DNA from: Gemmata obscuriglobus
GTDB lineage: Bacteria; Planctomycetota; Planctomycetia; Gemmatales; Gemmataceae
Assembly (NCBI RefSeq): GCF_008065095.1
Contig: NZ_CP042911.1
Location: 2,160,001-2,192,000 of the forward strand
Reading direction: 5' to 3'
DNA length: 32,000 nt
Position numbers and translations under genes: made by a program. How positions within the stretch are numbered: position 1 is the stretch's first letter; each line of letters starts with the position of its first letter. A model generated the notes under the pieces. That model did no database searches. It saw nothing but the letters and a program-made list of their open reading frames with translations, and was not told the DNA's origin. Positions 3,101 through 19,212 of this stretch are shown piece after piece.

Positions 3101-3174
3101 GTGGCGCCCAGAAAGAAGCACGCGCGTAGTTTAGCACCGAACGGGGCGGGGCGCCTGCTGATGCGCCAGAAGCG

Positions 3175-3237
3175 TGAGCGGCGGCGCGGGGCGGGCGCGA
3201 CACAAATGATGTCGCGCCCGCCCCGCGCCGCCGCTCA
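3175..3237 (-). terminator. Perfect 28-bp GC-rich stem with a 7-nt loop between the Fe-S gene and the kinase gene; candidate terminator or attenuator
   Basis: The left arm at 3175-3202 is tgagcggcggcgcggggcgggcgcgaca. The loop at 3203-3209 is caaatga. The right arm at 3210-3237 is tgtcgcgcccgccccgcgccgccgctca, the exact reverse complement of the left arm. The structure begins 26 nt downstream of the stop at 3263-3265 on the minus strand. No U-tract follows it on the minus strand, so the intrinsic-terminator call is only moderate. The structure itself is certain. Confidence 0.55.
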
Positions 3238-3262
3238 GACTTCCCACACACCGTTCGGTCGT

Positions 3263-6022
3263 TTAGTCGTGGGTTTCGAGCCGGTGCAGCACTTCGGTAA
3301 GCAGTCCCGGGCCGCTCATCCGGTACGCGGCTTCGTGCGGGCACGCTTGAACGCAGAACGGCTCGTTGCCGCCGCACAGGTCGCAGTTGACGGCGCGCCG
3401 GGCGGCGATCTTGAGCGGGTCGCCGCTGGGGTGCTGGGTCGCGGCCGGGTTCGGGGTGCCGCGGGCGGTCATGTGGATCGCACCGTAGGGGCAGTTGCGC
3501 TCGCACAGCCCGCACCCGATGCAGTGGTTCTCGATCACCACCTCCAGGTGCGCGCCGCGGCGGTGGATCGCGTCCACCGGGCACCCCTCCATGCAGTACG
3601 GCTTCTGGCACGAGCGGCACGAGGTGGCGACCAGGAAGTCGCCGAACCGCAGCCCCTCGCGGAGCAGCCGGGCGTTACCGTCGTGCGAGTCGGCGCACGC
3701 CTTGGTACACTCGTCGCACCGGGTGCAGCTCTTCAGGTCGAGCACCAGCAGCCGCTGCCCCTGGTAGAGCCCCTGGCGGACGTAGTCGCGGAGGACCGCC
3801 GGGGGCGGGTCCTTGGCGACGCCCGGGACCGCGCGGCGCGGCCCCTCTTCCATGTGCTCTTTGAGCTTCGGGAACCGCTCGCACAGCCGGCGGAACACCG
3901 GGCCGGGGACCCGCACCACCTCGACCGGGTCCAGCGCCGCGACGGTCGCGGTGCGCACCCCGGGGCGGTCCGACAGCAGCCCGCGCTCGCCGAAGCTGTC
4001 GCCGGCGGACAGCAGCCGCAGCACCTGCTCGGCCCCGCCGGCCGTGGTGAACACCCGCACGGTGCCCAGCCGGATGATGTAGAACGCGGCCGCGACGTCC
4101 CCTTCGGACACGATCGCCTCGCCCGCCTCGACCCGGGCGAACGTGACCCCCTCGCTCAGCAGGAACGTCGCCGCCTGCTCCCGCTCCATCTTGTCGAGCG
4201 CCTCGAACACGCGGCTGTTCTGCACGCCGGTCTGGATCGCGCGCAGGGTGTACATCTCCTGGATGTCCTCGCGGGCCGAGGCCGACCGCTGCATCATGTC
4301 GAGCATGTTGCGGGTGATCTCGTACACCACCACCGGGCCGCGCTTCTTCGGGTTCCGCGCGACGGTGGGCCATCCGTTCTCGTCGTACCCCAGGGTGAGT
4401 TCGGGGCTGTCGTCCTCGGCGACCGCGACCACGGTCGCGGTGCGCGGGCGCTGGGTGAAACAGGTCATCTCGCCGAGCACCAGCTCGTCCCCGGACGACA
4501 CCTTCACCAGCGCCCCGTAGTCGCCCGCCGCGCGCTTCTTTTTCTTCTTCGCCCCGCCGAACAGGCTGCCGAGCAGCCCGAGCCGCACCTCGGGCTCCGG
4601 CCCGCGGACGTAGATCTCGAACGTGCCGGTCCCTTGCAGGAGGAACGCGGTGCTGCCGTACTCGCCCTCGTCGCACAGCACCTTGCGGTCGCCCGGGCGG
4701 ATCTCCCACCGGCGCACGGCCCCCTCGTTCCACTTGAGGTACGAGTACGGGATGGAGCGGAACGGGAACACGACCCGCGCCCCGCGGGTGGGGCTCTCGT
4801 ACAGGAGCCACACGTCCCGCATCTGGTCGGCGGTCAGGAAGTCGGACCCCTCCGGGAACGGGGTGTTCGGGTTCACCGGCACCTGCTCGGGCGAGTCGTC
4901 GCCCCACGCCCGGGGCCGCACGCGGCGGCGCAGCGACAGCGCGCCGGTGGGGCAACTGTTCATGCACTCGCCGCACTGCACGCAGGTGCTGTCCCGCATG
5001 ACGCTGTCGAGGTCGAAGCTGATGCGGGTGCCGTACCCCTTGCCGGTGTGGCCGATCACCTTGAACGGCTTCACCTCGGAGCACGCCCGCACGCACCGGT
5101 CGCACACGATGCACCGGTCGTGGTCCACCACCACCGTGCGCGACGAGTAGGGGTAGTCCTTGTCGATCTGCGCGTTCCACTCCTCCCAGGCGTCGCGCAG
5201 CTCCGGCGCCTCTTCCGTCAGCTCGTTTTCGCGGAGGGTGGGGAGGAGGGGCAGGTTGACGCGCCGGGACTTGGGGATCGCCTCTTCGGCCGCGTTGCGG
5301 CTCGGCAGGGCGGCGGGCTTGCGCAGGCTCGGCCGCGCCTCCAGCACCTCCAGCGACCGGGCCACCGTGGACAGCTCGTCCTCGTACCGCTTGGTCTCGG
5401 TGAGCGGCTCGTGGAGGCAGTCGGCGACGAGGAACTCGGCGAGCAGCTTGACCGACTGGTTGACGCTGTCTGCCGCGTCCCGGATGGTCTTGGCGGTCTT
5501 TTCGTCGCCCGTGGCCTCGTCGCGCTTCTGCGGGTTGTACCCGTCGAGCCCGGCGCGGGTGGTGACCACCATATTGGTTTCGACGCGGTGCTGGCACGCG
5601 GGCACCAGCTTGCGCCCGGGGGTCAGCTTCCCGCGCTTCATGCTCGAGATGTGGACCGAGCACATGCGGCACACCGCGACCGGGGCGACGTGCCGCTGGT
5701 GGCACAGCACCGGGATGCGCTCCTTCAGCTCCTCTTCCGTCCACGCCCCGGCGGCGACGAGGGCCGCGGCGGCGTCGTAGATGGTCGTGGTGCGCGGGAT
5801 CTCCTTGCCGTCGGCGTCGCGGACGACGTTCCCCTGCGCGTCGGTCTTGGGCACCGCGCGGGGCACCTCGACCGGGAACCCGTCGATGACGACGGTGACG
5901 AGGTCCCGGAACCGGTCGCGGGTCTCTTTCTCGCGCCGCACGAGCACGTCGTTGTCGTCGCGGGCGAAGAGGGACTCTTCTTCGCGGCCCAGGAAGATGT
6001 CGGGATCGGCGATGTCAGGCAT
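3263..6022 (-). CDS. Multidomain Fe-S protein: NuoG/HndD-type N-terminus ([2Fe-2S] + 2x[4Fe-4S]), two cyclic-nucleotide-binding domains, DmsB/HybA-type 4x[4Fe-4S] C-terminus
   Basis: The protein is 919 aa. The [2Fe-2S] pattern is C107-x10-C118-x2-C121-x21-C143. The two-cluster ferredoxin patterns are C304xxC307xxC310xxxC314 and C347xxC350xxC353xxxC357P. The cNMP phosphate-binding cassettes are LGEMTCFTQRPRTATV (aa 516-531) and FGERGLLSDRPGVRTATV (aa 677-694). The C-terminal clusters are C766xxCxxCxxxC776, C802xxCx4CxxxC814P, C834xxCxxCxxxC844P and C880xxCx6CxxxC894P. There is no molybdopterin or H-cluster domain and no TM helix. Confidence 0.9.
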   Translation of the reverse strand: MPDIADPDIFLGREEESLFARDDNDVLVRREKETRDRFRDLVTVVIDGFPVEVPRAVPKTDAQGNVVRDADGKEIPRTTTIYDAAAALVAAGAWTEEELKERIPVLCHQRHVAPVAVCRMCSVHISSMKRGKLTPGRKLVPACQHRVETNMVVTTRAGLDGYNPQKRDEATGDEKTAKTIRDAADSVNQSVKLLAEFLVADCLHEPLTETKRYEDELSTVARSLEVLEARPSLRKPAALPSRNAAEEAIPKSRRVNLPLLPTLRENELTEEAPELRDAWEEWNAQIDKDYPYSSRTVVVDHDRCIVCDRCVRACSEVKPFKVIGHTGKGYGTRISFDLDSVMRDSTCVQCGECMNSCPTGALSLRRRVRPRAWGDDSPEQVPVNPNTPFPEGSDFLTADQMRDVWLLYESPTRGARVVFPFRSIPYSYLKWNEGAVRRWEIRPGDRKVLCDEGEYGSTAFLLQGTGTFEIYVRGPEPEVRLGLLGSLFGGAKKKKKRAAGDYGALVKVSSGDELVLGEMTCFTQRPRTATVVAVAEDDSPELTLGYDENGWPTVARNPKKRGPVVVYEITRNMLDMMQRSASAREDIQEMYTLRAIQTGVQNSRVFEALDKMEREQAATFLLSEGVTFARVEAGEAIVSEGDVAAAFYIIRLGTVRVFTTAGGAEQVLRLLSAGDSFGERGLLSDRPGVRTATVAALDPVEVVRVPGPVFRRLCERFPKLKEHMEEGPRRAVPGVAKDPPPAVLRDYVRQGLYQGQRLLVLDLKSCTRCDECTKACADSHDGNARLLREGLRFGDFLVATSCRSCQKPYCMEGCPVDAIHRRGAHLEVVIENHCIGCGLCERNCPYGAIHMTARGTPNPAATQHPSGDPLKIAARRAVNCDLCGGNEPFCVQACPHEAAYRMSGPGLLTEVLHRLETHD

Positions 6023-6121
6023 GGTGGAACCCGTGTCCTGGCGAGCGAGGGCGCGAGCCCTGGCGTGACCTGTGGCGACGAGGCGATGCGTGCGCTGCGT
6101 GGGGGGAGCGGTGCCGGCCCG

Positions 6122-8182
6122 CTATTCGGCGGGCTTCCGCCCGTTCGCTTTGGGTGCGTCATCGACGAAGTACTCGAGCGCCGTCGCCAGCGGGATCGGG
6201 GCCACGTACCCCAGGCCGCAGATCGAGGTGAGCTGGAGCGTCTTCGTGATCTCTTTCACGTCCTTCTTGATCGCGGCCAGGTCGTCGGCCGGCAGCCGGC
6301 CCGCGCGGCGGCTCTTCAGCAGCCCCTCGCCGATCTGCACCAGCTTCTGCGACCCGAGCCGGCACGGCACGCACTTCCCGCACGACTCGTTTCGGTAGAA
6401 CTGCGTGTAGTTCACCGCCTGGTCGAGCACGTCCACGTCGCCCGCGTACACTGTGATGGCGGCGCCGAGCATCGCTTCCACGGGGAGCCGCAGCGCGCCG
6501 TTCAGGTGCCGGAAAAAGTTCAGGTCAAGGGGGATCTTGAGCACGTCGAGTTCGGTCGCGCCGAGCGGCAGGTGCGTGTTGAGGAACCACTCCATGAAGT
6601 CCGCGTCTTGCGCCGAGCGGTCGCGGATGCGGGCGACCGCGTCCGCCCGCTTCTTGGCGTCGAACTTGGGATCGACCGGCAGCTTCGCCGGGACCAGCCC
6701 GCCGGACGGGCCGGACGCGGCCACCGCCCGCAGCGGGCCGGTGATCCCGCCGCAATACTTGTCCCCGTTGAACAGCTCGCCGAGGGTGAGGCCGATCGCG
6801 ACCTCGTACACCCCGGGGCGCGCCACGTCGCCGCTGACCGAGAACAGCCGCCGCCCGCCGAACTTGATCTTCGGGTCGGTCGCCAGCCGCCACCCGCCCA
6901 TCTCGTACTTGTCGCCGCCGAACAGGATGATCCCCGGCGCCCAGGCCAGCGTCTCGACGTTGTTCACCACCGTCGGCTTGTCGCGGAACCCGTTGGCCGA
7001 CAGCTCCGGCGGCCGGTTCCGCGGTTGCCCGCGGCGGTCCTCCATTGCCTCGATCAGGGCCGACTGCTCGCCGCAAATGTACCCCCCCGGGCTCTCGAAC
7101 ACCTCGACCGGGAAGTTGCGTCCCGACCCGAAGATGTTCGGGCCGCACGCGCCGAGCTCTTGCGCGCGTTTGATCTCTTCTTTTAGGGCGTGGATCTGCT
7201 CGAAGTACTCGTGGCGGACGTAGATGTGCCCGCTGGTGGCGCCGGTCATGAGCCCGGCGAGGATGACCCCCTCCACCACGAGGTGCGGCATCCGCAGGAG
7301 GATCTCGCGGTCCTTGAAGGTGCCGGGTTCGCTCTCGTCGCCGTTGCAGACGATGTACTTCTCGTTGCCCGGCTGTTGCCACACGTCGAGCCACTTCTGG
7401 TACGCCGGCGCGCCGGCCCCGCCCATCCCGAGCAGGTTCGCCGTCTTGAGCTCCCACAGCAGCGGGTGGAACCGCTGGACGTAGGTCTCAAGGTCCTTGC
7501 CGCCCAGCTCGCGCGGGGGCGGCACGAGCGGCCGGATGAGCCGAGCCAGGTAGTCCGTGAACCGCTTGACGGCGCGGTAGTCGCGGGGCCAGCCCTGGCG
7601 CCCGTAGATGTCCAGCGACCAGCCCGCCGTGCGCGGCGCCGGGTGCTCCGGGTCGGCGATCACGCCCTTGGGTATCGCGTAACCGCGGTTGGTGTTGGTG
7701 TGCGGCTCGTAAGTCGCGTCGGTGTCCGGCTCGGGCGGGTCGCGGTCCGCGGCGAGGTCCCGCAGCACCCCTTCGAGGAACTCGCCGTCGCGCCCGGCGT
7801 AGACCCAGGCGTGAACGTGTTCGGGCATGGGCCGCTTCTCGACCCACACCGCCGGGGCGCGGTCGCACCGGCCCAGGCACGAAACGCCCTCGACGCACAC
7901 ACTCTTGCCGGTCGCCTCGGACAATTCGGCCGCGAGCACCGGCAGCCCGGTGCGCTCGTCCAGCAGCGCCGCGGCCCCGCGGTGGTGGCAGGTCAGGTCG
8001 CGGCACACCCGCATCTCGATCTCGGGCGGGTTGGTGCGTTCGAGCTTGAACGCGGGGAAAAAGCTGCTGACCTCCTCAATGCGGTACAGCGGCACGTTGA
8101 TCTCGTGCGCGAGCGCCCGCAGCTCCTTATCGGGGAGGAAGCCGAACCGGTTTTGGATGTCGCGGAGCCGCTGAACGATCAT
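6122..8182 (-). CDS. NuoE-NuoF fusion protein (NADH-oxidising flavoprotein module: thioredoxin-like [2Fe-2S] + FMN/NADH site + [4Fe-4S])
   Basis: The protein is 686 aa. The NuoE part begins MIVQRLRDIQNRFGFLPDKELRALAHEINVPLYRIEEVSSFFPAF and carries CRDLTC...CLGRC, a Cx4C...Cx3C pattern. The NuoF part has GMGGAGAPAYQKW (FMN loop), YIVCNGDESEPGTFKDREIL, GGYICGEQSALIEAME, VVNNVETLA, an SLBB-like RRLFSVSGDVARPGVYEV, and ESCGKCVPCRLG...SICGLG ([4Fe-4S]). The start is ATG at 8182. Confidence 0.92.
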   Translation of the reverse strand: MIVQRLRDIQNRFGFLPDKELRALAHEINVPLYRIEEVSSFFPAFKLERTNPPEIEMRVCRDLTCHHRGAAALLDERTGLPVLAAELSEATGKSVCVEGVSCLGRCDRAPAVWVEKRPMPEHVHAWVYAGRDGEFLEGVLRDLAADRDPPEPDTDATYEPHTNTNRGYAIPKGVIADPEHPAPRTAGWSLDIYGRQGWPRDYRAVKRFTDYLARLIRPLVPPPRELGGKDLETYVQRFHPLLWELKTANLLGMGGAGAPAYQKWLDVWQQPGNEKYIVCNGDESEPGTFKDREILLRMPHLVVEGVILAGLMTGATSGHIYVRHEYFEQIHALKEEIKRAQELGACGPNIFGSGRNFPVEVFESPGGYICGEQSALIEAMEDRRGQPRNRPPELSANGFRDKPTVVNNVETLAWAPGIILFGGDKYEMGGWRLATDPKIKFGGRRLFSVSGDVARPGVYEVAIGLTLGELFNGDKYCGGITGPLRAVAASGPSGGLVPAKLPVDPKFDAKKRADAVARIRDRSAQDADFMEWFLNTHLPLGATELDVLKIPLDLNFFRHLNGALRLPVEAMLGAAITVYAGDVDVLDQAVNYTQFYRNESCGKCVPCRLGSQKLVQIGEGLLKSRRAGRLPADDLAAIKKDVKEITKTLQLTSICGLGYVAPIPLATALEYFVDDAPKANGRKPAE

Positions 8183-8303: not shown

Positions 8304-9941
8304 TCATTCTTGCTTGGTGCTGCCCGTGAGCCACTGCTTGAGCGACAGCGGCGTTCCGCTTTCGCGGGCGGCGGCCCCACGCCCCTGGAGCGGGTTGTCG
8401 CCGTTGTGGTACCGGTGGCAGTCGGTGCAGTTGTGCCGGGCGCCGCCGCCCGCCACGTCGGTGCCGTCGGGCAGCTTGACGACAGTGCCGACCGGCGCGT
8501 GACAGGCCCGGCACGTGTTCAGCCCGAGGATCTGGACCGGCTCCGGTTTGTTCGCCTCGACCGGCGACACGTATGCGGCTGCGGTGCCGGGGTGGCACGT
8601 CGCGCAGGTGGCCCCGCGGTGTGATGCGTGGTTGAACGTCGCGTGCCGGAGCCAGACGGTGCGGTCCGGTACCGCCGCGATTTTCGTCCTCGCGCCGCCA
8701 GCGCCTGCGGTCACCGTGTGGCACTTCGCGCAGCTCCCGCGGCTGCCGAACAGGTTAGCCTCCGCGTCCGCGGTGAGGCGTTCGGCGGTGTGGCCCAGCG
8801 TCGGCGGGGCGAGCGGTTGTTGCGGGTCCAGTTTCCCGCCCAGTTCCGGCGGGCGGGCGAGTGCGGGGTGGCCGCCGTCGCTCAGCCCCTTCAGGTAGCC
8901 CGCCTTGAGTTCGGCCGCGAGGTCCGCGGGCTGCTTGCGGTGCGCCAGCTCGAACCGCGGCACGGCGAACTTCTTGCCCCCTGACTCGGCGACGGCCTCG
9001 GGGGCGGCTAGCGGGTGGCACGACCGGCAGTGCGCCTCGAAGTTGACCGGCAGGAAGTACGCACCTTCCGCGCGCGGCGGGAACAGCGCGTCCGCCGGGG
9101 CGCCCTTCGTCAACGTCGCCTTCACCTTGTCCAGTTCCGGGGAGCCGGCGCCGGCGTCGAGCGCGTGGCACGACGCGCACGCGAGCTGAACCTTCGCGCT
9201 GTCGGGTTGGCCGGGGGCGAAGCGGGCGACGGCCGCGGCACCGCCCAGCTCACGGAGCCGGGCGACGGTCATCGCTTCCTTCCCGTCCGCGCTGTACGCC
9301 TGCCCCGGACTCATGTGGACCGCGTGGCTGAACGTGAGTGTCCGCGGGCTCTTGGTGATGTCAAGCGACCGAAACTCCGGGTGGTCGGTCACGAAGTTGG
9401 TCACCTTGTTCGCGTAAGGCGGCTCGCCGCGGGCCGCGGTGAGCGACCGGTCCGCATCGTGGTACCGGTTGAGTTCGGCGTGGCACCAGTTGCAGTCCTT
9501 GTCGGCAAGCCGGACCAGCGAGTTGAGCCGCCCGTTATGGTCGTGGTGGCAGTTCGAGCACCGGTCGTGGAACGCCTGCGCCTCCTTATTGGAGGAGGCG
9601 TGGTGCGGCGGCCCCGCGTGGCACTTCTCGCAGGTGAGATCGTGCCACCGGTCCCGCGCCCGGAAGGCGTCGAGCGGATTCAGACTCACCTTATGCGCCT
9701 TGTGGCACGCCTCGCAGTTGTTGTCGAACGCCGCGTGGACGTCGGCGAGTTGGCCGTGCGAGTGGGCGTACTGGACCCGCTGGGCCGGTTTGGCCACATC
9801 GACCGCCGCCCAGACGCCGGCCCCGATGAGGGCAATGGCGGTGAGGGCGCGGCGGGCGCGGCGGAACACGTCGGGGCTGCGGAAGTACCCGCGCCGCCCG
9901 ATGTACCGGTCCGACAGGTCGCGACTAGGGGAGCGGGGCAT
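8304..9941 (-). CDS. Membrane-anchored decahaem c-type cytochrome
   Basis: The protein is 545 aa with an N-terminal hydrophobic anchor ALTAIALIGAGVWAAV. It has ten CXXCH motifs: CEACH, CEKCH, CSNCH, CNWCH, CASCH, CRSCH, CAKCH, CATCH, CRACH, CTDCH. It also has c3/c7-like distal-His motifs (FSHAVH, FNHASH). Confidence 0.92.
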   Translation of the reverse strand: MPRSPSRDLSDRYIGRRGYFRSPDVFRRARRALTAIALIGAGVWAAVDVAKPAQRVQYAHSHGQLADVHAAFDNNCEACHKAHKVSLNPLDAFRARDRWHDLTCEKCHAGPPHHASSNKEAQAFHDRCSNCHHDHNGRLNSLVRLADKDCNWCHAELNRYHDADRSLTAARGEPPYANKVTNFVTDHPEFRSLDITKSPRTLTFSHAVHMSPGQAYSADGKEAMTVARLRELGGAAAVARFAPGQPDSAKVQLACASCHALDAGAGSPELDKVKATLTKGAPADALFPPRAEGAYFLPVNFEAHCRSCHPLAAPEAVAESGGKKFAVPRFELAHRKQPADLAAELKAGYLKGLSDGGHPALARPPELGGKLDPQQPLAPPTLGHTAERLTADAEANLFGSRGSCAKCHTVTAGAGGARTKIAAVPDRTVWLRHATFNHASHRGATCATCHPGTAAAYVSPVEANKPEPVQILGLNTCRACHAPVGTVVKLPDGTDVAGGGARHNCTDCHRYHNGDNPLQGRGAAARESGTPLSLKQWLTGSTKQE

Positions 9942-10060
9942 CTCTTAACCCGACGGTTGGTGCTCGGTGTCTCGTACCTGGTGCCTGCCATACGTTCGAC
10001 GCGGGTGACCACGCACCGGTGCAGAACGTGTGGCCCGCCGAATGCAGTATGCAACACAAC

Positions 10061-10942
10061 TTACCAGTACTTCAGCGCCCGGACCGCGTGGAGGACCATG
10101 AGCGAGAACATGGCCCACGACAGCGGGATGTGAACCAGGAGCCAGCCGTGCAGCCACGCGTGCAGGGTCCGCTGGTCGTCCCAGCGGCGGCGCAGGTCGG
10201 CGAGCCCCTGGAGCTTGTCGAGCGCGCCGCGGGCGTCCGGCGGGACCGCCTCCCGGAGCCGGGCGAACCGGCGCTCGGCCTCGGCGCGGGCGGTCAGGGG
10301 CGACCGCGACTGCCGCCCTTGTTCCAGATAAGGGAGCAGCACCTCGTCGCGGAACGCCTCGAGTTCGCCGGCCAGCGGTCCGCTGATGACCGGCTCGTCG
10401 GATTCGGACTCCGGGGGCACCGTGGTGAGCGCGGTGATGAGCTGCCGGGCCTCGTCGGCCTGGTACTCGCCGAGCCGGTCGATTTGCGACGCGATCGACT
10501 CGCCCGGGATGTCTGCGAGCATCTTTTGGGGGAGCCACTGCTGCATCACCAGGCCCCAAACGCCGCTCGCGATGACCGCAAGGAACAGCGCCATCGTGGC
10601 CGCCGGGAGCGGGCCGCCGAACCCGAACCCGCCGTGGATCAGAATCACCGGCAGGCACAGGAGCCCGAGCCAGATGTGCAACCGCATCCAGGTGCGGGTG
10701 CGGCCGAGCCGGTGCCCGCGCAGCATTTTGCGGAACACCAGGGCCATTTCGAACGCGATGATGATCCCGCCCGCGACCCCGCACAGCACCCCGAACCCGC
10801 TGCTGGGCTGCGGGGGCCAGTCCCACAGCCCGAGGAGCCCGCCGACCCAGGCGACGGCCGTGACGGCAACCGTGATCCCGACGGTGGCACCGATGATGGT
10901 GAACACCCGGCGCGGAACGGTCTTGGTCTTACCGAGAAGCAC
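10061..10942 (-). CDS. Integral membrane protein, putative di-haem b-type transmembrane electron carrier (cytochrome b / ferric-reductase-domain-like)
   Basis: The protein is 293 aa with about five hydrophobic helices. H89-x13-H103 lies in RLHIWLGLLCLPVILIH, and H271-x13-H285 lies in VHIPLSWAMFSLMVLH. A ~120-aa charged helical insert (aa ~137-255) sits between TM4 and TM5. The start is GTG at 10942, and there is no nearby in-frame ATG. Family assignment is by pattern only. Confidence 0.7.
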   Translation of the reverse strand: MLLGKTKTVPRRVFTIIGATVGITVAVTAVAWVGGLLGLWDWPPQPSSGFGVLCGVAGGIIIAFEMALVFRKMLRGHRLGRTRTWMRLHIWLGLLCLPVILIHGGFGFGGPLPAATMALFLAVIASGVWGLVMQQWLPQKMLADIPGESIASQIDRLGEYQADEARQLITALTTVPPESESDEPVISGPLAGELEAFRDEVLLPYLEQGRQSRSPLTARAEAERRFARLREAVPPDARGALDKLQGLADLRRRWDDQRTLHAWLHGWLLVHIPLSWAMFSLMVLHAVRALKYW

Positions 10943-11206
10943 TCGCGGCTCCGATCATGACGCCGTATTTCGTGTTACGGTGAGGATAGTACCCCTCGTG
11001 CGCGGGGCGGTCAACTATTTCGAACAGGAACTTCGGCCCCGGTGACACCGGGGCGTCACCCGCGGCCGGCGCGCGACCTTGTGAGGCGCATTCGTGATGG
11101 ACGGCGCTTGCCGTCCGGCCCGGAAATGTTGAACATGGGGGACGCACCGGCGGGCGCGTCCCGTGGCTCGCGTTTTGAACACCCGCTCAACTATTATCGG
11201 CTGACA
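10943..11206. promoter_or_regulatory. Divergent intergenic control region between the two arms of the redox island
   Basis: This is 264 bp between divergent starts at 10942 (-) and 11207 (+). It contains a 19-bp perfect palindrome gccccggtgacaccggggc at 11036-11054. That palindrome overlaps an alternative stem ggtgac/gtcacc (11041-11046 / 11055-11060). There is a hairpin ggacggc-gctt-gccgtcc at 11099-11116 and a hairpin gggacgc-N10-gcgtccc at 11139-11162. The AT-rich 9-mer TCAACTATT occurs twice (11011-11019 and 11187-11195), each time next to a TT(C/T)GAACA motif. I could not place promoter hexamers confidently. Confidence 0.5.
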
Positions 11207-12664
11207 ATGAATCTCAGCGCGCGTACAGTTCTCGTCACACTGGTGGCGGCCGCGGTCGGCCTCGCGGTCGCGGTCGGCGCGGCCCGGGCCGTCAAACCCG
11301 ACACCGTGACGGTTCCGAAGTACGAGCCGGTCCACCCGACTTCCGACGCGCCAACCGAGCGCCGGCCGGTCGGCGCGGTCGGGTGCATGGCCGCCGCGTG
11401 TCACGGCGCGCCCGCCGGTGAACTGCTCAACGGCCGGAGCGGCCCCGACACATGGGCCGCTTCGGGGAGCTGCTGGGCCGCAGCCGATCCGCACACGGCG
11501 GCCTACAGCCTGCTGACCGACCGCCCGCGGCGTAGCGTGGTGGTGACCGCGGCCCGGATCATGGCGAAGTACCGACCGGGGGTGAAGGCGACCGACGACG
11601 CCCGGTGCCTGGCGTGTCACACCAACCCGACGCTCGCGGAACTCCCCGCGACGACTGAAGTGGTTGCGCTCCGCGAGCAGGGGGTGAGCTGTGAGGCGTG
11701 CCACGGTAACGCGGGACAGTGGATTCAACCGCACACCGGGTGGACCGGCGACCGGGCGCAGGTGTACCGCGAGACCGGATTAAAACCGCTGTACGACATG
11801 GGCGAACGGGCGGTGACCTGCGCTGGGTGCCACGTCGGGGCGCCGGCCGACGGCTCCAACCCGGTGCGCGACATGAACCACGACATGATCGCGGCCGGGC
11901 ACCCGCGGCTGAACTTCGACTTCGCCGAGTACCAGCGCCGGCTCCCGAAACACTGGCACGAGAAGGAACGAACGAGCGGCGCGGCCAAACTGAACGAGTC
12001 GCAGGTGTGGTACGTCGGGCGGTTGGCCCACGCGGAGACCGCGTGCCGGCTCCTGGGGAGCCGGGCGCAGCGGACCGAGGCGAACGACGCCCGGACGGTC
12101 TGGCCCGAGTTCGCCGAGTTCAACTGTGCCGCTTGCCACCACAACTTGCGCGCTCCCGAGGAGGACGGCGGGCACTGGCGCAAGAGCGCGGAATACCTCG
12201 ACGGCCGCCCGATCGGTTCGACCCCGTGGCAAACGATCTGGCCCGTGACGCACGCGCCAGGACTGCCGCAGCCGCGCCGGGCGACCTCTGAAGTCGCGGC
12301 GCTGGTGCGGCTGATGGAGGGGGAGACCGGGCAGACGTGGCCCGACGGCCGGCCCAAGGTGCTCCGCTTCGCGAAGGCCCCGGATGCGAAGGGGCTGGCT
12401 CTCGCCACCGCCGATGCGCTCGCGGCGGCCCGGCGCGAGGCGGCGGCGGGTACGAAGGGGCCGCCGCCCGGGCTGTTCCCGGCGGGCGCGCCGCTTGTGC
12501 CCGAGTGGGACAGCGCGGAACAACTGTTCTTCGGGCTCGCGGCGCGGGAATACGCCCGGGGCGCGCCCGCCGCCGGGACCGTGCAGAAGTACCGGACCGG
12601 CGTGGACGCGTTTCGCGCCCGAGACTGGCTGAAGGTCAAGGACGTGTTCACCGGGCTGCGCTAG
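11207..12664 (+). CDS. Secreted pentahaem c-type cytochrome, paralogue 1 (cytochrome c554-family-like signature)
   Basis: The track ORF is 11042..12664. I prefer the ATG at 11207, which gives a signal-like N-terminus MNLSARTVLVTLVAAAVGLAVAVGAARA. The haem sites are CMAAACH (CX4CH, nt 11384-11404), CLACH, GVSCEACHGN, CAGCH and CAACHH. It shares DPHxxAYSLL and DMNHDMIAAGHPRL with the two downstream paralogues. Confidence 0.88.
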   Translation: MNLSARTVLVTLVAAAVGLAVAVGAARAVKPDTVTVPKYEPVHPTSDAPTERRPVGAVGCMAAACHGAPAGELLNGRSGPDTWAASGSCWAAADPHTAAYSLLTDRPRRSVVVTAARIMAKYRPGVKATDDARCLACHTNPTLAELPATTEVVALREQGVSCEACHGNAGQWIQPHTGWTGDRAQVYRETGLKPLYDMGERAVTCAGCHVGAPADGSNPVRDMNHDMIAAGHPRLNFDFAEYQRRLPKHWHEKERTSGAAKLNESQVWYVGRLAHAETACRLLGSRAQRTEANDARTVWPEFAEFNCAACHHNLRAPEEDGGHWRKSAEYLDGRPIGSTPWQTIWPVTHAPGLPQPRRATSEVAALVRLMEGETGQTWPDGRPKVLRFAKAPDAKGLALATADALAAARREAAAGTKGPPPGLFPAGAPLVPEWDSAEQLFFGLAAREYARGAPAAGTVQKYRTGVDAFRARDWLKVKDVFTGLR

Positions 12665-12695
12665 GAGCGCGGCCCGCGAAGGATTCCCCGCACGG

Positions 12696-14240
12696 ATGCG
12701 ACGGAAGCGAACCGCGAGTGTGATCGTGCGCGCCGTTCCCCTTGTTGCGATGGCCCTCGCCGCTGGCGTCGTCGCCGGTGGCCTGAACGCGGTTCATTCC
12801 TCTCATCCCCCGACCCGCTCCCCTCAACTCGCGTCGGCGGTGGGTGCGGCGGGCGACAAGCCTTACGGGGTCGGGGCGGCGCCGTTCGCGCACCGGCCGA
12901 GCACCTCGTGCGCCGCGTCCGCCTGCCACGGCGGCGGCGCGATCGGCAAGGCGGGCAGCGAACACTCGACCTGGACCCGCGAGGCCGCGCCGTCCGCGAC
13001 CGGCGACCCGCACGCGAAGGCGTACAGCGTTCTGTTCAACCCGGTCTCGGTGCGGATGGGACAGTTGCTCGGGTTCGACGGCAAAAAGGAGCCGCTGCCC
13101 CACGAGAACACCAGGTGCCTCGTGTGCCACTCCGTGGCCGAGGGCGCGGGCGGCGGAGACGATCGCGAGCAGTTCCTGGCGGAGGGCGTGGGGTGCGGCG
13201 GGTGCCACGGGCCGGCGGACAAGTGGATCGCCGAGCACACGCTCCCGTCGTGGAAGGCCCGTTCTAACGAGTCCAAGTGGAAAGACTTCGGGTTCGTGCC
13301 CACGAAGAACCTCGTGGCGCGGACGCTGAACTGCGCGAGCTGTCACGTCGGCGACGGCACGCGCGACATGAACCACGACTTCATTGCGGCCGGGCACCCC
13401 AGACTGGCGTTCGAGCCGGCCCGCTTCCACGCCCAGCCCGACTACCGCAAGCACTGGACGGAGAAGGCCCCGGCCCGCGATTTCGAGGTTCGCGTGTGGG
13501 TGGTCGGTCAGGCCGCGACCCTTCGCGCGGCTGTGAATCTGCTTTACGAGCGGGCGCGGAAGGCCGAGACGCCGAACGTCTCGCACCCGTGGCCGGAGTT
13601 CAGCGGCTACAGTTGCTTCTCGTGCCATCAGACGATTGGGGGCGATGCGCTGCGGGGCGAACGGAGCGCAACCGCCCGCCCCGTCGGCAACCCGCCCTGG
13701 GAGGTGTGGGCGAACGCCGGCGCGGGTGTCGCGGCCGAAACTTGCGGCACGGCGTTTCCCGGGGTAAGCTCGCCACAGTTGTTGAAAGTGCAAGAGCTTC
13801 GCAAACTGATGGGGGCGAAGCGGGAGCCGAACCCGGCCGAGGTCGCGCGACTGGCGCTCGCCGCCCGGGACGAACTCGACCAGTGGCTGGCGCAGCTCCA
13901 GGCCGCCGAAGATCGGGAGCTTGTGCCCGTCCCCGAAGGGACGCCGCGCCGGATCGCGCACCTGCTCACCTCGCGGGCGCTGAACGGGGACAAGCTCGCG
14001 GACCACGACTGGGACGCGCTGGCGTCGACGTACCTGGGCGCCGCGTCGATGTGGACCGCGACCGGCGGTCGGGGCGGGCGCGAGGCGCTCTGGGGTGAGC
14101 CCCTGGCGCGGGTGTACGGCGCCCTGAAGTTCCCCCCCGGCTCGAACGGGCCGGTCAAGTTCGGCAAGCCGGAACTGGACACCATCTACAAGCAGCTCGA
14201 ACTGCTGCGCGACACGACGGGCACACCGGAGGGGAAGTGA
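12696..14240 (+). CDS. Secreted pentahaem c-type cytochrome, paralogue 2
   Basis: The protein is 514 aa with a signal/anchor MRRKRTASVIVRAVPLVAMALAAGVVAG. The haem sites are CAASACH (CX4CH, nt 12909-12929), CLVCH, GVGCGGCHGP, CASCH and CFSCH. Shared motifs are DPHAKAYSVL, DMNHDFIAAGHPRL and WPEFSGYSC. A GAAGGA sits ~12 nt upstream of the ATG. The gap to paralogue 1 is 31 bp. Confidence 0.9.
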   Translation: MRRKRTASVIVRAVPLVAMALAAGVVAGGLNAVHSSHPPTRSPQLASAVGAAGDKPYGVGAAPFAHRPSTSCAASACHGGGAIGKAGSEHSTWTREAAPSATGDPHAKAYSVLFNPVSVRMGQLLGFDGKKEPLPHENTRCLVCHSVAEGAGGGDDREQFLAEGVGCGGCHGPADKWIAEHTLPSWKARSNESKWKDFGFVPTKNLVARTLNCASCHVGDGTRDMNHDFIAAGHPRLAFEPARFHAQPDYRKHWTEKAPARDFEVRVWVVGQAATLRAAVNLLYERARKAETPNVSHPWPEFSGYSCFSCHQTIGGDALRGERSATARPVGNPPWEVWANAGAGVAAETCGTAFPGVSSPQLLKVQELRKLMGAKREPNPAEVARLALAARDELDQWLAQLQAAEDRELVPVPEGTPRRIAHLLTSRALNGDKLADHDWDALASTYLGAASMWTATGGRGGREALWGEPLARVYGALKFPPGSNGPVKFGKPELDTIYKQLELLRDTTGTPEGK

Positions 14241-16054
14241 TGACGACGGGACACGCGGGGCGGACCGCCCGCGCCGCCGGACTTGCGGCGGTGTTCGCGG
14301 GCCTCGCGCTCGGGCTGGCGGTCGCCGTCAGCCCGCCGCGGGCCGCTGTCGCCGCGCAGGATGACAAGAAGGAGCCGCCGCGCCCCACCGAGGCCCAGAA
14401 GAAGGACCACGCCCTGCTCGGCGCGTCCCAGTGCAAGAAGTGCCACTCGGTCGCCGACCGGAAGGCGGCGGGCCTTGAGGAGTACGAGGAGACGAAGGCC
14501 TACGACTTCATCCGGCTCTCGGAGAACATCGTGTGGAGCGCGCACGACCTGCACTCCACCGCCTACCGGAGCCTGCTGACCGAAGAGACCGCAAAGGGGT
14601 CCAAGTTCACCCCCAACAAGACGGCCGAGCGGATGGAGCAGAAGCTCCGCAAATACAAGGGCGACAGCTACCGGGTGGCGACCGACACCGCGTGCCTCGC
14701 GTGCCACGCGAGCGTGCGCCAGCCGGTCGACAAGGTCCCACCGGACGCGTGGAAGGCCGGCAAGCTGACCGCGGGGAACCTCGCGGGCGGCTCGTTCACC
14801 AGCCTCGAAGGGGTGGGCTGCGAGATGTGCCACGGCCACGGGACGATGTATCAGACGGTCCACCAGGCGTCGCGCGAGGGCGACACCAACCCCGGGGCGC
14901 TGAAGGTGGTCGACTGGCGGCTGTTCCCGACGGCGGTGAAGACGGAGTGGGGCCTTAACAACCTTCGCGACCCGGCCGTCGCGGCCCAGACGTGCGCGTC
15001 GTGCCACATCGGCAACAAGGCCGAGGGGCGGTTCGTGACCCACGACATGTTCGCGGCCGGGCACCCGCCGCTGCCGCCGCTGGACCTGATGGCCTACACC
15101 CGCGAGCAGCCGCGGCACTGGGGGTTCGCGGGCGACATGCCGTTCATCACCAAGATGGCCGAGAACAAGGCGACCGCGGACAAGGCGTTCGCACTGTACC
15201 GCTACCGCGCGGGCGAGTCCCTCGTGGCCCGGCGGTTCGCGGAATCGGCCCTCGCGGTGCTGGGCGCCACCGCCGGCCTCGGCGCGCAGCTCGCCGACGA
15301 CGCGAAGGCCAAGGGCGACGGGCTCGACTTCTCGGCGTTCGACTGCTACTCGTGCCACCACAACCTGAAGTACCCGAGCGAGCGGCAGGATCGCGGCTAC
15401 GTCGGGCGCCCGGGGCGGCCGCTGTACCGTCCGGCGGCGTTCGCGCTCGCCCGGCTCGTGCTCGACCACGCCGGCGGGATGACGGGCGGTGAGTCCCTCA
15501 AGGGGGCCGCGAACGAACTCGACAAGCTGGAACTGGAACTGGCCGACGCGTTCACCGTGAAGACCTACGGCGACGCCGACAAGGTGAAGGCCGCGACCGC
15601 GAAACTCGCGGCCTGGAGCGAGGGCGTCCGAAAGAAACTCGAGCCGGTGCGGTACACGCCCGAGGAGGTCGCCAAGCTGTTCACCAAGCTGACCGCGGTC
15701 GCGAGCGACGCGAAGAAGCCGGTCGGTGACCCGGAGGTCGCCCAACTGTACCTGTGGGCGGCCGAGACGCTGTACCTGGACCTCCAGCCCAAGGAACTGA
15801 CGGATAAGGCGGTCGAGCCAAAGGCCCTCAAGGCGATGCGCGACGGGATCGCGGCGTCGGTCGTGACCCGGCTGCGCCCGGACACCGACTTCTACTATGA
15901 ACAGCGCTTCGTCGAGGGGAAATCGAGTCCGATCGAGAAACCGACGACCAACGACTCGGTCGAGCGCCGGCTCGAAAAGCGGATGGACATCTTCAACGCC
16001 TTCCGCGGCGATCCGTTCCGCATGGCGGTCGAGGGGCTGAAGCTCCCGAAATAG
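14240..16054 (+). CDS. Secreted pentahaem c-type cytochrome, paralogue 3 (longer C-terminal helical domain)
   Basis: The protein is ~604 aa. The start is GTG at 14237 or ATG at 14240, inside GTGATGA, which overlaps the TGA of paralogue 2 (translational coupling). The haem sites are CKKCH, CLACH, GVGCEMCHGH, CASCH and CYSCHH. Shared motifs are DLHSTAYRSLL and THDMFAAGHPPL. Confidence 0.9.
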   Translation: MTTGHAGRTARAAGLAAVFAGLALGLAVAVSPPRAAVAAQDDKKEPPRPTEAQKKDHALLGASQCKKCHSVADRKAAGLEEYEETKAYDFIRLSENIVWSAHDLHSTAYRSLLTEETAKGSKFTPNKTAERMEQKLRKYKGDSYRVATDTACLACHASVRQPVDKVPPDAWKAGKLTAGNLAGGSFTSLEGVGCEMCHGHGTMYQTVHQASREGDTNPGALKVVDWRLFPTAVKTEWGLNNLRDPAVAAQTCASCHIGNKAEGRFVTHDMFAAGHPPLPPLDLMAYTREQPRHWGFAGDMPFITKMAENKATADKAFALYRYRAGESLVARRFAESALAVLGATAGLGAQLADDAKAKGDGLDFSAFDCYSCHHNLKYPSERQDRGYVGRPGRPLYRPAAFALARLVLDHAGGMTGGESLKGAANELDKLELELADAFTVKTYGDADKVKAATAKLAAWSEGVRKKLEPVRYTPEEVAKLFTKLTAVASDAKKPVGDPEVAQLYLWAAETLYLDLQPKELTDKAVEPKALKAMRDGIAASVVTRLRPDTDFYYEQRFVEGKSSPIEKPTTNDSVERRLEKRMDIFNAFRGDPFRMAVEGLKLPK

Positions 16055-16071: not shown

Positions 16072-16109
16072 CGCAAAACGGGTTCCCTTGAGTGGGAACC
16101 CGTTTTGCG
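16072..16109 (+). terminator. Rho-independent-type terminator hairpin after the cytochrome operon
   Basis: A perfect 16-bp stem joins cgcaaaacgggttccc (16072-16087) and gggaacccgttttgcg (16094-16109), with loop ttgagt. It starts 18 nt after the TAG at 16052-16054 and is followed by ttat. Confidence 0.75.
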
Positions 16110-16183
16110 TTATGTGCGTAGCCGGCGCGGAGTGCTCCGCTCGCGCCACTTACCGGGAAGAACCCGGCGGGCGAGGCACGCAG

Positions 16184-17458
16184 ATGCGGATCGGTTCAGA
16201 GCGAACGGCCCGACGGCTCGATCGGGTTGCCGTAATTGGTCTTGTGGGCTGGCTTTTGTTCGATCTGACCGCACGCACGGTGTTCGGGTCGGTGCCCTGG
16301 CCGCAGTCTGTCGTCGATTACCGCATCATCTACGACGGCAGCCGACACGTCGTCGAAACGCACACCTACCCGACCGATAACCCGTACCCGTACCCGCCGC
16401 CTGCGGTCGCGCTCCACGCCGCCAGCGCGGTGTTCCCGTTCCGGGTGTCGGTGGCGCTGTGGCTGGCGCTGACCGGCGTGGCCGCCGCCGCCGTTTACTT
16501 CGCCCTCGCCCGCACGCTCGGGTTGCTCGTGCGTCCGGGACAACTCATCCTCCTACCGCTCGCGCACGTCGTGGCTGCGTACTACTTCCAGTGGGACATG
16601 CGGTCGGTGAACAGCAACCTCATCGTTCTGGCCGCACTCGTGTTCGGCTGCGCCGCGCTGGCACGGGCGCGCGACGGTGCGGCGGGGTTCTGGTTCGCAC
16701 TGTCTGTTGCGCTGAAACTGCTTCCGGTGCTGGTGCTGCCGTACCTCGCGTGGACCCGGCGGTGGCGCGCGTTCGCCTGGGCCGTCGCGTTCTCGCTGGT
16801 GTTTTGGTGCGCGGTCCCCGTGGCGGCGTTCGGAGTCACGGGCGCGGGGCCGGTTTACGAGGGGTGGGCGGCTGAGATCACGCGCGCGACGGACGCGCAG
16901 ACCAAAAGCCATCACCCGATTTTGATCTCACTCGATAAGGCCGCGTTGCACCTGTGCGCGGGTGACGCGGCGCGAGCGAAGGCGCTTTCGCTCGCCGTGT
17001 GTGTGGTGTGGGGGCTCGTGGGCGTCTGCGGGGCCGCGTCGTGCTGGGGGAACCGCGAACGCGACGCACGCAGCATCCTGACGCACGTGTCGCTGCTGGT
17101 ACTCGGTCCGGTCGCGGTCAACCCGTACCTGGAAGCATACCACCTCGTGCCGCTGGTGGTGCCGGCACTGGTGCTTTTGGTTGTGGGCGCCGACCCGACG
17201 TGTGGCCGGTTCGTGCGGGGCTTCGCGCTCGCGGCGTTCGCGCTCGCGGTCCTCATTCTGAAGGTGTCCAGCCCGTGGCCCCTGCGCGGTTTGTTGGTGA
17301 ACGCGCAGGCGCTCGTGTTGTGTGGTGCCGCGGTCGGAGTGGTGTACGGGCGTGCGAAATGGCGGATGCGGGACACGAGTGCAGGGCGGGTGGAAGAGGT
17401 GCGAGGGAACCGACTCACCGGTCTGGCCCGGCGCCTCGCGTTACACCCGAAGAGCTGA
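16184..17458 (+). CDS. Polytopic membrane glycosyltransferase, GT87 / DUF2029-like
   Basis: The track ORF starts with TTG at 16088, inside the terminator hairpin. I prefer the ATG at 16184 (MRIGSERTARRLDRVAVIGLVGWLLF). There are many TM helices. The first loop, VVDYRIIYDGSRHVVETHTYPTDNPYPYPPPAV, matches the D-x-x-x-Y ... YPP pattern typical of PimE-type DUF2029 mannosyltransferases. Confidence 0.65.
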   Translation: MRIGSERTARRLDRVAVIGLVGWLLFDLTARTVFGSVPWPQSVVDYRIIYDGSRHVVETHTYPTDNPYPYPPPAVALHAASAVFPFRVSVALWLALTGVAAAAVYFALARTLGLLVRPGQLILLPLAHVVAAYYFQWDMRSVNSNLIVLAALVFGCAALARARDGAAGFWFALSVALKLLPVLVLPYLAWTRRWRAFAWAVAFSLVFWCAVPVAAFGVTGAGPVYEGWAAEITRATDAQTKSHHPILISLDKAALHLCAGDAARAKALSLAVCVVWGLVGVCGAASCWGNRERDARSILTHVSLLVLGPVAVNPYLEAYHLVPLVVPALVLLVVGADPTCGRFVRGFALAAFALAVLILKVSSPWPLRGLLVNAQALVLCGAAVGVVYGRAKWRMRDTSAGRVEEVRGNRLTGLARRLALHPKS

Positions 17459-17553: not shown

Positions 17554-18009
17554 TCAGGTCCGGTTCTCGTGGCTCTTTTCGTAGGCGTCCACTTTCTCGC
17601 GGCGGCGGGTGTGGCGCCCGCCCTCGAAGTCGGTCAGCAGCCACGCCCGGATGATGCGCTCGATTTGGTCTTCCCCGAGCAAGTCCGCCGCCAGACACAG
17701 GATGTTCGAGTCGTTGTGTCGGCGGCTCAGCTCGGCGTCGATGACATCGCGGCTGTTGACGGCCCGGATGCCGTGGACCTTGTTCGCCGCGATGCACATC
17801 CCGTGACCGGTCGCGCAGATGAGGACGCCGCGGTCGGCTTTACCGGCGGCTACCTCTTCGGCCACCGGGATCGCGTAGTCGGGGTAGTCCACGCCGGCCG
17901 GTCCGCTGGCGCCGAGGTCGTGCACCTCGTGCCCCAGTTCGGCCAGCAACCCGAGGACGCGCGGCCGCACGCACAGCCCGCGGTGGTCGTTGCCCACGGC
18001 AACCTTCAT
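17554..18009 (-). CDS. rpiB: Ribose-5-phosphate isomerase B (RpiB/LacAB family)
   Basis: The 151-aa product is MKVAVGNDHRGLCVRPRVLGLLAELGHEVHDLGA...GVLICATGHGMCIAANKVHGIRA...SRRHNDSNILCLAADLLG. These are the classic RpiB motifs (GxDHxG, C-x-T/S-G-x-G, NK..G.RA, HN..N.L). The ATG at 18009 overlaps the upstream TGA (ATGA). The 298-aa track ORF extension is rejected. Confidence 0.9.
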   Translation of the reverse strand: MKVAVGNDHRGLCVRPRVLGLLAELGHEVHDLGASGPAGVDYPDYAIPVAEEVAAGKADRGVLICATGHGMCIAANKVHGIRAVNSRDVIDAELSRRHNDSNILCLAADLLGEDQIERIIRAWLLTDFEGGRHTRRREKVDAYEKSHENRT

Positions 18010-19037: not shown

Positions 19038-19212
19038 GGCGCGGCGGTCCCCCGGACGGCAAGTGGAACTGTACCCAATATTAGAAAAGAAGAGGCGAAA
19101 GGGCGAGAGGGAGTCGAGAGTCTTGCTCATTGCTGGTTGTTAGACCAACGCCGCGGCTCGATCGCTCATGTGAGCGGCCGAACCGCGGCGCGGTGGGAGC
19201 CGCCGGCCGGTT

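Follow-up and report, generated by a model that had tools for sequence, protein, structure and literature searches.

The stretch of DNA analysed here, referred to below as the window, comprises 32,000 nucleotides of the Gemmata obscuriglobus contig NZ_CP042911.1 (assembly GCF_008065095.1, positions 2,160,001 to 2,192,000 of the forward strand; Planctomycetota, Gemmataceae). An open reading frame (ORF) on its minus strand (10061-10942) starts with GTG and encodes a 293-residue protein with five transmembrane (TM) segments. Downstream on the same strand lie genes for a decahaem cytochrome c, a NuoE-NuoF fusion and an iron-sulfur (Fe-S) protein that also has domains for binding cyclic nucleoside monophosphates (cNMP), and three large cytochromes c are transcribed divergently. 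Proteins of the five-TM type have already been recognised from sequence in two earlier works, as IMP of the PCC4 gene clusters (He et al. 2017) and as PtdF of the ptd operon (a preprint), so that the central idea pursued below has been published twice as a prediction. In line with it, we consider that the 293-residue protein is probably the b-type cytochrome that crosses the membrane in a multi-subunit conduit for transmembrane electron transfer, that it corresponds to PtdF and to the PCC4 IMP, and that it is a predicted di-haem cytochrome b resembling the ferric reductase domain (FRD) and DUF4405.

The gene model is sound, since homologues share its N-terminal start, MLxGK. The contig NZ_JAXBLV010000133.1 of Gemmata algarum JC673 matches the window, and its copy of the protein is 99% identical. 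Three overlapping ORFs, at 9945-10826 (-), 10019-10960 (+) and 10386-11045 (+), were read as shadow ORFs of high-GC DNA; homologues and conservation fit 10061-10942 (-), the only frame that was searched. Histidines occur at positions 77, 89, 103, 261, 265, 271 and 285. A preliminary description of this DNA had noted two H-x13-H pairs, one on TM3 and one on the last TM helix, and histidine positions, hydropathy and an AlphaFold2 model all bear this out. The pairs are H89-x13-H103 (RLHIWLGLLCLPVILIH) and H271-x13-H285 (VHIPLSWAMFSLMVLH), for both of which the codon coordinates were checked. Hydropathy places the five TM segments at residues 13-36, 49-73, 84-104, 111-135 and 266-290. The AlphaFold2 model (pLDDT 85, pTM 0.71, 26 homologues used) has helices at 9-36, 49-73, 82-104 and 111-144, four helices in an insert, and a long helix at 235-292; the histidine pairs therefore fall in TM3 and in TM5, the last TM. 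The C-terminus is only 3-5 residues beyond TM5.

TM3 (10631-10693, -) carries W85-x3-H89-x13-H103, the H89 codon being at 10676-10678 (-) and the H103 codon at 10634-10636 (-). TM4 (10538-10612, -) has the SGXXG motif, here S126-G127-V-W-G130 (10553-10567), and a conserved QQWLP end. TM5 (10073-10150, -) has H265 followed by W267-x3-H271-x13-H285, with H271 encoded at 10130-10132 (-) and H285 at 10088-10090 (-). Between TM4 and TM5 lies an all-helical insert, predicted to be cytoplasmic (residues 136-264; 10151-10537, -). The preliminary description had put this charged helical domain at ~120 residues, and at 129 residues it is indeed there. Its helices in the AlphaFold2 model (154-173, 189-212, 219-232 and 235-264) have pLDDT values mostly of 80-95, and the last of them runs unbroken into TM5.

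A homologue search with the 293-residue protein found 952 sequences, and conservation was scored over 376 full-length homologues. The four paired histidines are essentially invariant: H271 is conserved in 100% and H89, H103 and H285 in 99.7% each, as the preliminary description had expected of haem ligands. Each inner histidine is preceded by four residues by a tryptophan that is almost as constant (W85, 98.7%; W267, 100%), and the TM4 motif is retained to a similar degree (S126, 98.9%; G127, 100%; G130, 99.5%), as are Q134 and P138 in the QQWLP sequence at the cytoplasmic end of TM4 (99%). H77 and H261 are not conserved. A fifth near-invariant histidine is H265 (96.5%), two residues ahead of W267 at the cytoplasmic end of TM5 (codon 10148-10150, -), which may interact with a haem propionate or serve as another ligand. 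It is of note that E65 in TM2 (10748-10750, -) is invariant in the 26-sequence Gemmataceae alignment and conserved in 64% of the family as a whole. When the 293-residue sequence was shuffled, two or more H-x13-H pairs arose in only 0.6% of cases; conservation of the histidines is the stronger argument for the motif. The insert has mean contents of 18.5 K+R and 20.6 D+E across homologues, and its middle loop differs in length among them. No conserved Cys or His cofactor motif was seen in the insert in the 376-homologue alignment, which argues that it probably carries no cofactor.

The distribution of basic residues points to an N-in topology by the positive-inside rule. Over the same homologues the N-terminus has a mean of 2.7 K+R and the 15-residue TM2-TM3 loop 5.9 (R71, K72, R75 and R78 being conserved at 86-95%), as against 0.3 each for the TM1-TM2 and TM3-TM4 loops. 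On this prediction the insert is cytoplasmic and TM3 and TM5 cross the membrane in the same sense, from inside to outside; H89 and H271 would be close to the cytoplasmic surface, and H103 and H285 close to the periplasmic one. One histidine of each pair is thus placed at each face of the membrane, as the preliminary description had supposed. Two bis-His haems stacked across the bilayer require just such a layout, a helix of 14 residues being ~21 Å long, and the His-bearing helices TM3 and TM5 of ferric-reductase/NOX domains have the same orientation (PMC3591440).

This is a large family, with 3328 clusters (50% identity) matching its profile at E<=1e-3 and 451 doing so at E<=1e-30. Some members are enlarged. 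P0256 and P0268 have a long low-complexity loop rich in Ala, Pro and Ser (~170 residues) in the insert, and P0200 and P0249 contain at least two additional TM helices between TM2 and TM3; all four keep every His and Trp and the SGxxG motif. Inspection of these same four longer homologues revealed no natural fusion of an Fe-S protein with IMP. Mean-field direct coupling analysis of helix packing was dominated by gap artefacts and, with an effective sequence number (Neff) of 34 once gaps were removed, was uninformative.

The gene directly downstream (8304-9941, -) encodes a membrane-anchored, PtdG-like decahaem cytochrome c with 10 CXXCH motifs, so that the decahaem neighbour named in the preliminary description is confirmed. 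Its layout is a conserved cytoplasmic N-terminal tail, one TM helix and then the ten haem motifs. The tail (residues 1-30; 9852-9941, -) is strongly conserved ahead of the anchor, also in loci L002-L050. Its consensus is MPRSPSRDLSDRYxGxRGYFRxPD in Planctomycetota and M(A/P)RSSK(D/E)(L/I)AKRLRFDxFPxPDxF(R/Q)RWY in Binatia, Deltaproteobacteria and Myxococcota. Such conservation is atypical for a signal anchor, and it suggests that the tail contacts either the cytoplasmic insert of the five-TM protein or the Fe-S partner.

Next on the minus strand is the NuoE-NuoF fusion (6122-8182), which matches 2Fe-2S_thioredx, Complex1_51K, SLBB and NADH_4Fe-4S in Pfam and nuoF_fam and nuoE_fam in NCBIfam. 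It retains the motifs for the 2Fe-2S cluster, for NADH and flavin mononucleotide (FMN), and for the 4Fe-4S cluster N3. The FMN-site motif of its NuoF part is GGYICGEQSAL, where canonical NuoF has ...ICGEETAL, and a linker of ~120 residues joins the NuoE and NuoF parts. The variant motif and the linker fusion suggest a dedicated diaphorase that is not part of complex I. The PtdE-like Fe-S/cNMP protein follows (3263-6022, -). Domain matches and motifs divide it into a NuoG/HoxU-like N-terminus (2Fe-2S and two 4Fe-4S), a middle part with two cNMP_binding domains, and a C-terminal DmsB-like ferredoxin with four Cys clusters (Fer4_11/DmsB-like matches). The cofactor motifs of both proteins are intact. 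A 1770-residue ORF on the opposite strand (1874-7186, +), antisense to these two genes and to a kinase gene beyond them, is almost certainly another high-GC shadow ORF.

The three divergent cytochromes c (11042-16054, +) are encoded at 11042-12664, 12696-14240 and 14237-16054. They are 514-605 residues long and contain, in this order, 4 CXXCH plus 1 CX4CH, 4 plus 1, and 5 CXXCH haem motifs, the CX4CH forms being CMAAACH and CAASACH; their Pfam matches are Cytochrome_C554, C7 and MtrC-like. Low haem density, together with the Cytochrome_C554 and MtrC-domain matches, suggests that these pentahaem proteins are enzymes rather than wires; they are candidates for the system's terminal reductases. 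The GT87 glycosyltransferase gene at 16088-17458 adjoins the third of them.

Gene order was compared over 51 genomic loci. Among the same-strand genes, the TM protein is present in 50 of the 51, the decahaem cytochrome in 49, the NuoE-NuoF fusion in 43 and the Fe-S/cNMP protein in 38, and the three divergent pentahaem cytochromes are kept in 34-38. The decahaem gene adjoins the TM gene in 49 of 50 loci. Beyond this seven-gene block no further gene, including any for a porin, is conserved in the 51 loci; no ORF in the window has a porin-like Pfam match, which leaves room for a remote or unrecognised porin. The order TM protein, decahaem cytochrome, NuoEF, Fe-S/cNMP protein holds in ~45 Planctomycetota loci, and in other Planctomycetota these four genes form a cassette on their own. 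In several Gemmataceae loci an extra open frame of ~1400 residues with 9 CXXCH motifs sits beyond the third pentahaem gene (L007 610-4776, L010 640-4767, L012 491-4705, L022 618-4718, L039 794-5011); it has no counterpart in the window.

Outside the Planctomycetota the arrangement changes. In Binatia, Deltaproteobacteria and Polyangiaceae a protein with cNMP-binding and FHA domains and four 4Fe-4S motifs is followed by the TM protein and then the decahaem cytochrome; the product of the Fe-S gene that immediately precedes the TM gene is 38-45% identical to the C-terminal ~226 residues of the window's Fe-S/cNMP protein. A core of polyferredoxin (with its cNMP-binding domain), TM protein and decahaem cytochrome is thus shared by Planctomycetota, Binatia, Myxococcota and Deltaproteobacteria. 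The decahaem cytochrome of the distant loci L053 and L054 likewise has 10 CXXCH motifs. In L053 a molybdopterin oxidoreductase (5798-7993, +) lies directly upstream of the Fe-S/TM/decahaem trio, in the place of NuoEF; it is cytoplasmic, with no Tat signal and with an N-terminal 4Fe-4S motif. The stop codon of the L053 Fe-S gene overlaps the start of the TM gene. It is clear from the comparison of loci that the decahaem cytochrome is the invariant partner and the soluble polyferredoxin the usual second one, and the dehydrogenase that feeds the polyferredoxin appears to be exchangeable, being a NuoEF fusion here and a molybdoenzyme in one other locus. The proposal in the preliminary description that the membrane protein connects cytoplasmic NuoEF/Fe-S proteins with periplasmic multihaem proteins is supported, in that it fits the synteny of ~50 loci from several phyla.

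Signalling domains recur within or beside these electron-transfer genes. Besides the two cNMP-binding domains of the Fe-S protein and the cNMP and FHA domains of its distant homologues, a Ser/Thr protein kinase gene (1217-3121, -; Pkinase, 175 bits) ends the same-strand gene row in the window and is a possible regulator; it is found in 13 loci. FHA, PP2C and cyclase genes accompany the distant clusters; in L053 genes for PP2C and for a guanylate-cyclase-FHA protein come after the trio, and an MscS-like channel gated by cNMP is encoded there too. The joint occurrence of these genes points to post-translational or allosteric gating of the conduit.

Remote homology was sought at the level of families. 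With the full-length window protein the sole Pfam match was DUF4405 (PF14358), at 19.1 bits against a cut-off of 26.7; deletion of the insert raised this to 25.3 bits. Among 52 diverse full-length homologues, sub-threshold matches were to DUF4405 (26/52), Ferric_reduct (10/52), Ni_hydr_CYTB (6/52) and PepSY_TM (1/52). A core set of 54 diverse members from which the insert had been removed in silico matched DUF4405 in 37 cases (best E 2e-7) and Ferric_reduct in 10. The Ferric_reduct matches in both sets are sub-threshold, with a best E of 1.2e-5. The L049 homologue reaches 25.9 bits with Ferric_reduct and has a precomputed PF01794 match; precomputed PF01794 or PF14358 matches exist for some homologues, some of which NCBI names 'ferric reductase-like transmembrane domain-containing protein'. 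Every Pfam family so matched is one of di-haem membrane cytochromes, which is the outcome that the preliminary description had looked to profile comparison for, at sub-threshold scores in the case of the window protein. Haem b binding has been shown experimentally for one DUF4405 protein and for FezC (PMC11334425).

Searching the Protein Data Bank (PDB) with the core profile gave STEAP1 (E 0.025), STEAP4 (0.07) and STEAP2 (0.37) as best matches. The alignment sets W267-LLV-H271...H285 on W-MLT-R161...H175 of STEAP1, so that the outer H285 falls on the STEAP1 haem ligand and the inner H271 on the Arg typical of the YedZ/STEAP branch. Family and register are consistent, though the E-values are marginal and the profile is artificial. 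Foldseek comparison of the AlphaFold2 model gave as top matches the helical sensor domains of TorS, McpS and PilJ (E 0.1-3, TM-score 0.3-0.4), which were judged generic matches to long helices. A tblastn search against plasmids found nothing.

Two published descriptions come close to the window cluster. He et al. 2017 (PMC5566968) defined IMP in the putative porin-cytochrome clusters PCC3 and PCC4 as a protein of ~300 residues that has five TM helices and carries WX3HX13H on both TM3 and TM5 and SGXXG on TM4; they compared it with FRD and cytochrome b, and expected it to hold two b-haems. PCC4 occurs in Planctomycetes; its multihaem cytochromes carry 4, 5 or 10 haems, an Fe-S gene (PF13247) precedes that of IMP, and 'other redox proteins' are encoded as well. 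Table S6 of the same paper lists porin-less clusters with a 9-haem cytochrome of 544-556 residues, an IMP of 308-310 and a redox protein of 796-805 (PMC5566968). In their model IMP is coupled to the quinone pool and electrons flow inward for Fe(II) oxidation. The window protein has the same signature (293 residues, five TM, both WX3HX13H motifs and SGXXG), and the protein sizes in the Table S6 clusters are very close to those in the window. It differs in that the linked cytoplasmic module is the N-module of an NADH dehydrogenase and that there is no porin, and Gemmata is not, to our knowledge, an Fe(II) oxidiser.

The ptdABCDEFG (penta/tetra/deca-haem) operon has been reported also from Planctomycetes metagenome-assembled genomes (bioRxiv 10.1101/2023.11.21.568154). 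It encodes a cNMP-binding 4Fe-4S protein (PtdE), a ferric-reductase-like membrane protein (PtdF) and a decahaem cytochrome (PtdG), the PtdF gene being between the other two, and its function was stated to be 'completely unknown' (same preprint). The window has the same E-F-G components plus five-haem cytochromes; its three cytochromes have 4+1, 4+1 and 5 haem motifs, where the ptd operon has penta- and tetra-haem cytochromes nearby. The differences are that the porin PtdB is not conserved with the Gemmataceae cluster, that the FAD/NAD(P) oxidoreductase PtdC is absent and a NuoE-NuoF fusion stands in its place, that the PtdE-like protein has an extra NuoG/HoxU-like N-terminus, and that the gene order is F-G-(NuoEF)-E. 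Because the descriptions of IMP and PtdF share signature and context with the window protein, we regard it as a member of the type that they recognised, and both the homology to PCC4 IMP and the orthology to PtdF rest on that signature and context. As judged from sequence, what sets the Gemmataceae version apart is the lack of a conserved porin, the NuoE-NuoF fusion replacing PtdC and the NuoG/HoxU-like N-terminus.

More distant relatives help to define the likely mode of action. FRD/NOX domains are N-in, hold two stacked b-haems and take electrons from a donor in the cytoplasm to an acceptor on the outside (PMC3591440); the haem ligands of NOX are His101/115/209/222 (cited in PMC3591440). Like the FRD superfamily (NOX, FRE, YedZ/MsrQ and STEAP; PF01794), the window protein is predicted to be N-in and has histidine pairs on TM3 and TM5 with 13-residue spacing. 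Unlike it, the protein has five TM helices rather than six and no fused FAD/NADPH domain, and it has the 129-residue helical insert in the TM4-TM5 (D-loop) position; its proposed donors are separate Fe-S and NuoEF proteins, and its proposed acceptor is a multihaem cytochrome c, not O2 or metal. A second comparison is with DUF4405 (PF14358), PepSY_TM (FoxB) and FezC, DUF4405 being the commonest Pfam match of the family. The DUF4405 protein that was studied and FezC have four central histidines besides haem b (PMC11334425). The DUF4405 proteins studied differ in having six TM helices and in being linked to flavinylation (ApbE), not to multihaem cytochromes. As regards function, the Tmc, Hmc and DsrMKJOP complexes of sulfate reducers also join a periplasmic multihaem cytochrome c, a membrane cytochrome b and a cytoplasmic Fe-S protein. 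In these complexes the cytochrome b belongs to the NarI/HdrE type, whose fold and arrangement of histidines are different, and the subunit in the cytoplasm resembles HdrD; they are functional analogues only, with no homology to the window protein.

The motifs and their conservation, the topology, the linkage of the genes in different phyla and a distant resemblance to families of di-haem proteins were observed or computed, whereas haem binding, direct transfer from Fe-S cluster to haem without a quinone, the outward direction and a docking role for the insert are our inference. The predicted pathway is as follows. NADH would reduce the FMN of the NuoE-NuoF fusion, and electrons would then pass through the NuoG-like clusters to the four-cluster DmsB-like ferredoxin of the Fe-S/cNMP protein. 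This protein would dock on the cytoplasmic face of the five-TM subunit, with the TM2-TM3 loop, rich in Arg and Lys, and the helical insert between TM4 and TM5 as its contact sites. There H89 and H271 would ligate one haem b and, near the periplasmic face ~20 Å away, H103 and H285 a second, as in ferric-reductase/NOX domains. From the inner and then the outer haem b, electrons would reach the membrane-anchored decahaem cytochrome c and, through it, the three pentahaem cytochromes and a periplasmic or extracellular acceptor. Outward flow is favoured because export is promoted both by NADH, whose potential is low, and by a membrane potential that is negative inside, transfer inward to NAD+ being doubly uphill.

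In NOX enzymes the B- and D-loops contact the dehydrogenase domain. The TM2-TM3 loop and the insert occupy these two positions, which makes it topologically reasonable, by analogy, that the insert is the docking site for the DmsB-like module. On the other side of the membrane the short, conserved, Gly-rich loops (WPPxPSS; H103-x-GFxxGG) probably form the docking face for the decahaem cytochrome.

Several results weigh against this assignment. Our literature search found no biochemistry on members of the IMP/PtdF subfamily. The window protein scores below the gathering threshold of every Pfam family, Ferric_reduct (PF01794; threshold 28 bits) does not match it at all, and NCBIfam assigns it no family. 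The STEAP matches have marginal E-values and come from an insert-deleted construct; PDB sequence searches with the full-length protein and profiles returned noise only (opsins, a tape measure protein, CD81, LptG), and Foldseek of the AlphaFold2 model against the PDB gave no match at E<=0.001. Alignment of family profiles to E. coli MsrQ and YodB with hhalign was negative, single-sequence templates making this a weak comparison. Lastly, L040 has the TM protein, the decahaem cytochrome and a 5-haem cytochrome only, with no Fe-S or NuoEF gene within 10 kb. Together with similar cases in He et al., it indicates that the Fe-S partner is not obligatory and that a quinone-coupled mode is conceivable.

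In such a mode the TM subunit would be a cytochrome b through which electrons move between menaquinone and the decahaem cytochrome. It would act as a quinol:cytochrome c or a cytochrome c:quinone oxidoreductase, while quinone reduction by NuoEF and the Fe-S protein would take place on the same subunit, unless these two function independently of it. Ferredoxins of the DmsB type are as a rule bound to membrane anchors that react with quinone, the highly conserved QQWLP sequence has no role assigned to it, and quinone-pool coupling of IMP is what He et al. 2017 (PMC5566968) proposed; clusters without an adjacent cytoplasmic redox gene would suit this scheme as well. What makes us consider it unlikely is that the polyferredoxin is soluble and anchor-less, that its gene is tightly linked to the TM gene across phyla, to the point of a stop/start overlap in one locus, and that the dehydrogenase upstream is exchangeable. 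Moreover, no quinone-site motif was identified, and the FRD, DUF4405 and STEAP relatives move electrons across the membrane without quinone (PMC3591440; PMC11334425).

The haem stoichiometry might also be other than that of a two-haem monomer. The best PDB matches are STEAP proteins, which have the outer haem only, so a single haem of the YedZ/STEAP type could be envisaged, and FezC and MsrQ have been modelled as homodimers, in FezC with the haems at the interface (PMC11334425). Electron transfer would then call for a different second cofactor on the cytoplasmic side or for a dimer, and the fifth conserved histidine, H265, lies at the cytoplasmic interface. In YedZ and STEAP, however, the first histidine is an Arg, whereas the present family keeps all four canonical histidines, and a single chain supplies both helices with both histidines on each, enough for two bis-His sites as in NOX. 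We regard these other stoichiometries as improbable. It is even harder to credit that the protein has no redox function and serves a signalling module of cyclic nucleotides and Ser/Thr kinases as membrane sensor or scaffold, in which case the histidines would be there for metal sensing or structure. The neighbourhood is certainly rich in cNMP-binding, FHA, kinase, PP2C and cyclase domains, and the top Foldseek matches were to sensor domains; but those matches are non-significant, the invariant neighbours are redox proteins, and motif pattern, topology and all sequence-profile matches point to di-haem cytochromes.

A transmembrane di-haem conduit thus being our preferred interpretation, a more specific version can be put forward tentatively, as plausible rather than probable: in Gemmataceae and related Planctomycetota a PtdF/IMP-type di-haem cytochrome b may have become coupled to a complex-I-type module that oxidises NADH, and the four-gene set may constitute a porin-less, quinone-independent NADH:periplasmic-cytochrome-c oxidoreductase that is switched by cyclic nucleotides. 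Such an enzyme would deliver reducing equivalents straight from NADH to the periplasm, as a prokaryotic equivalent of NADPH oxidase made up of several subunits, and would be a notable addition to bacterial bioenergetics. If the prediction of a conduit holds, the family would represent a third general bacterial route across the cytoplasmic membrane to multihaem cytochromes, beside quinol dehydrogenases of the NapC/CymA and NarI/HydC types, one that bypasses the quinone pool and takes electrons straight from cytoplasmic dehydrogenases, NADH-linked here and a molybdoenzyme in the other locus. It would also supply a mechanism for the uncharacterised Ptd/PCC4 clusters, and would alter the view of how reducing power relates to extracellular and periplasmic acceptors in Planctomycetota, iron oxidisers and bacteria of oxygen-deficient zones; the family is widespread, more than 3000 clusters matching its profile. 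The cNMP-binding and FHA domains of the Fe-S subunit suggest a gated electron valve, which would be unusual for a respiratory module.

The rest of the window contains genes unrelated to the cluster. These encode RpiB (17554-18450), a Sua5/low-molecular-weight-phosphatase fusion (18006-19130) and a leucine-rich-repeat protein (20278-21525). There are also DUF1559 (SBP_bac_10) proteins of the usual planctomycete kind at 21704-22696 (+) and 24263-27241 (-), with an N-terminal prepilin-type methylation motif.

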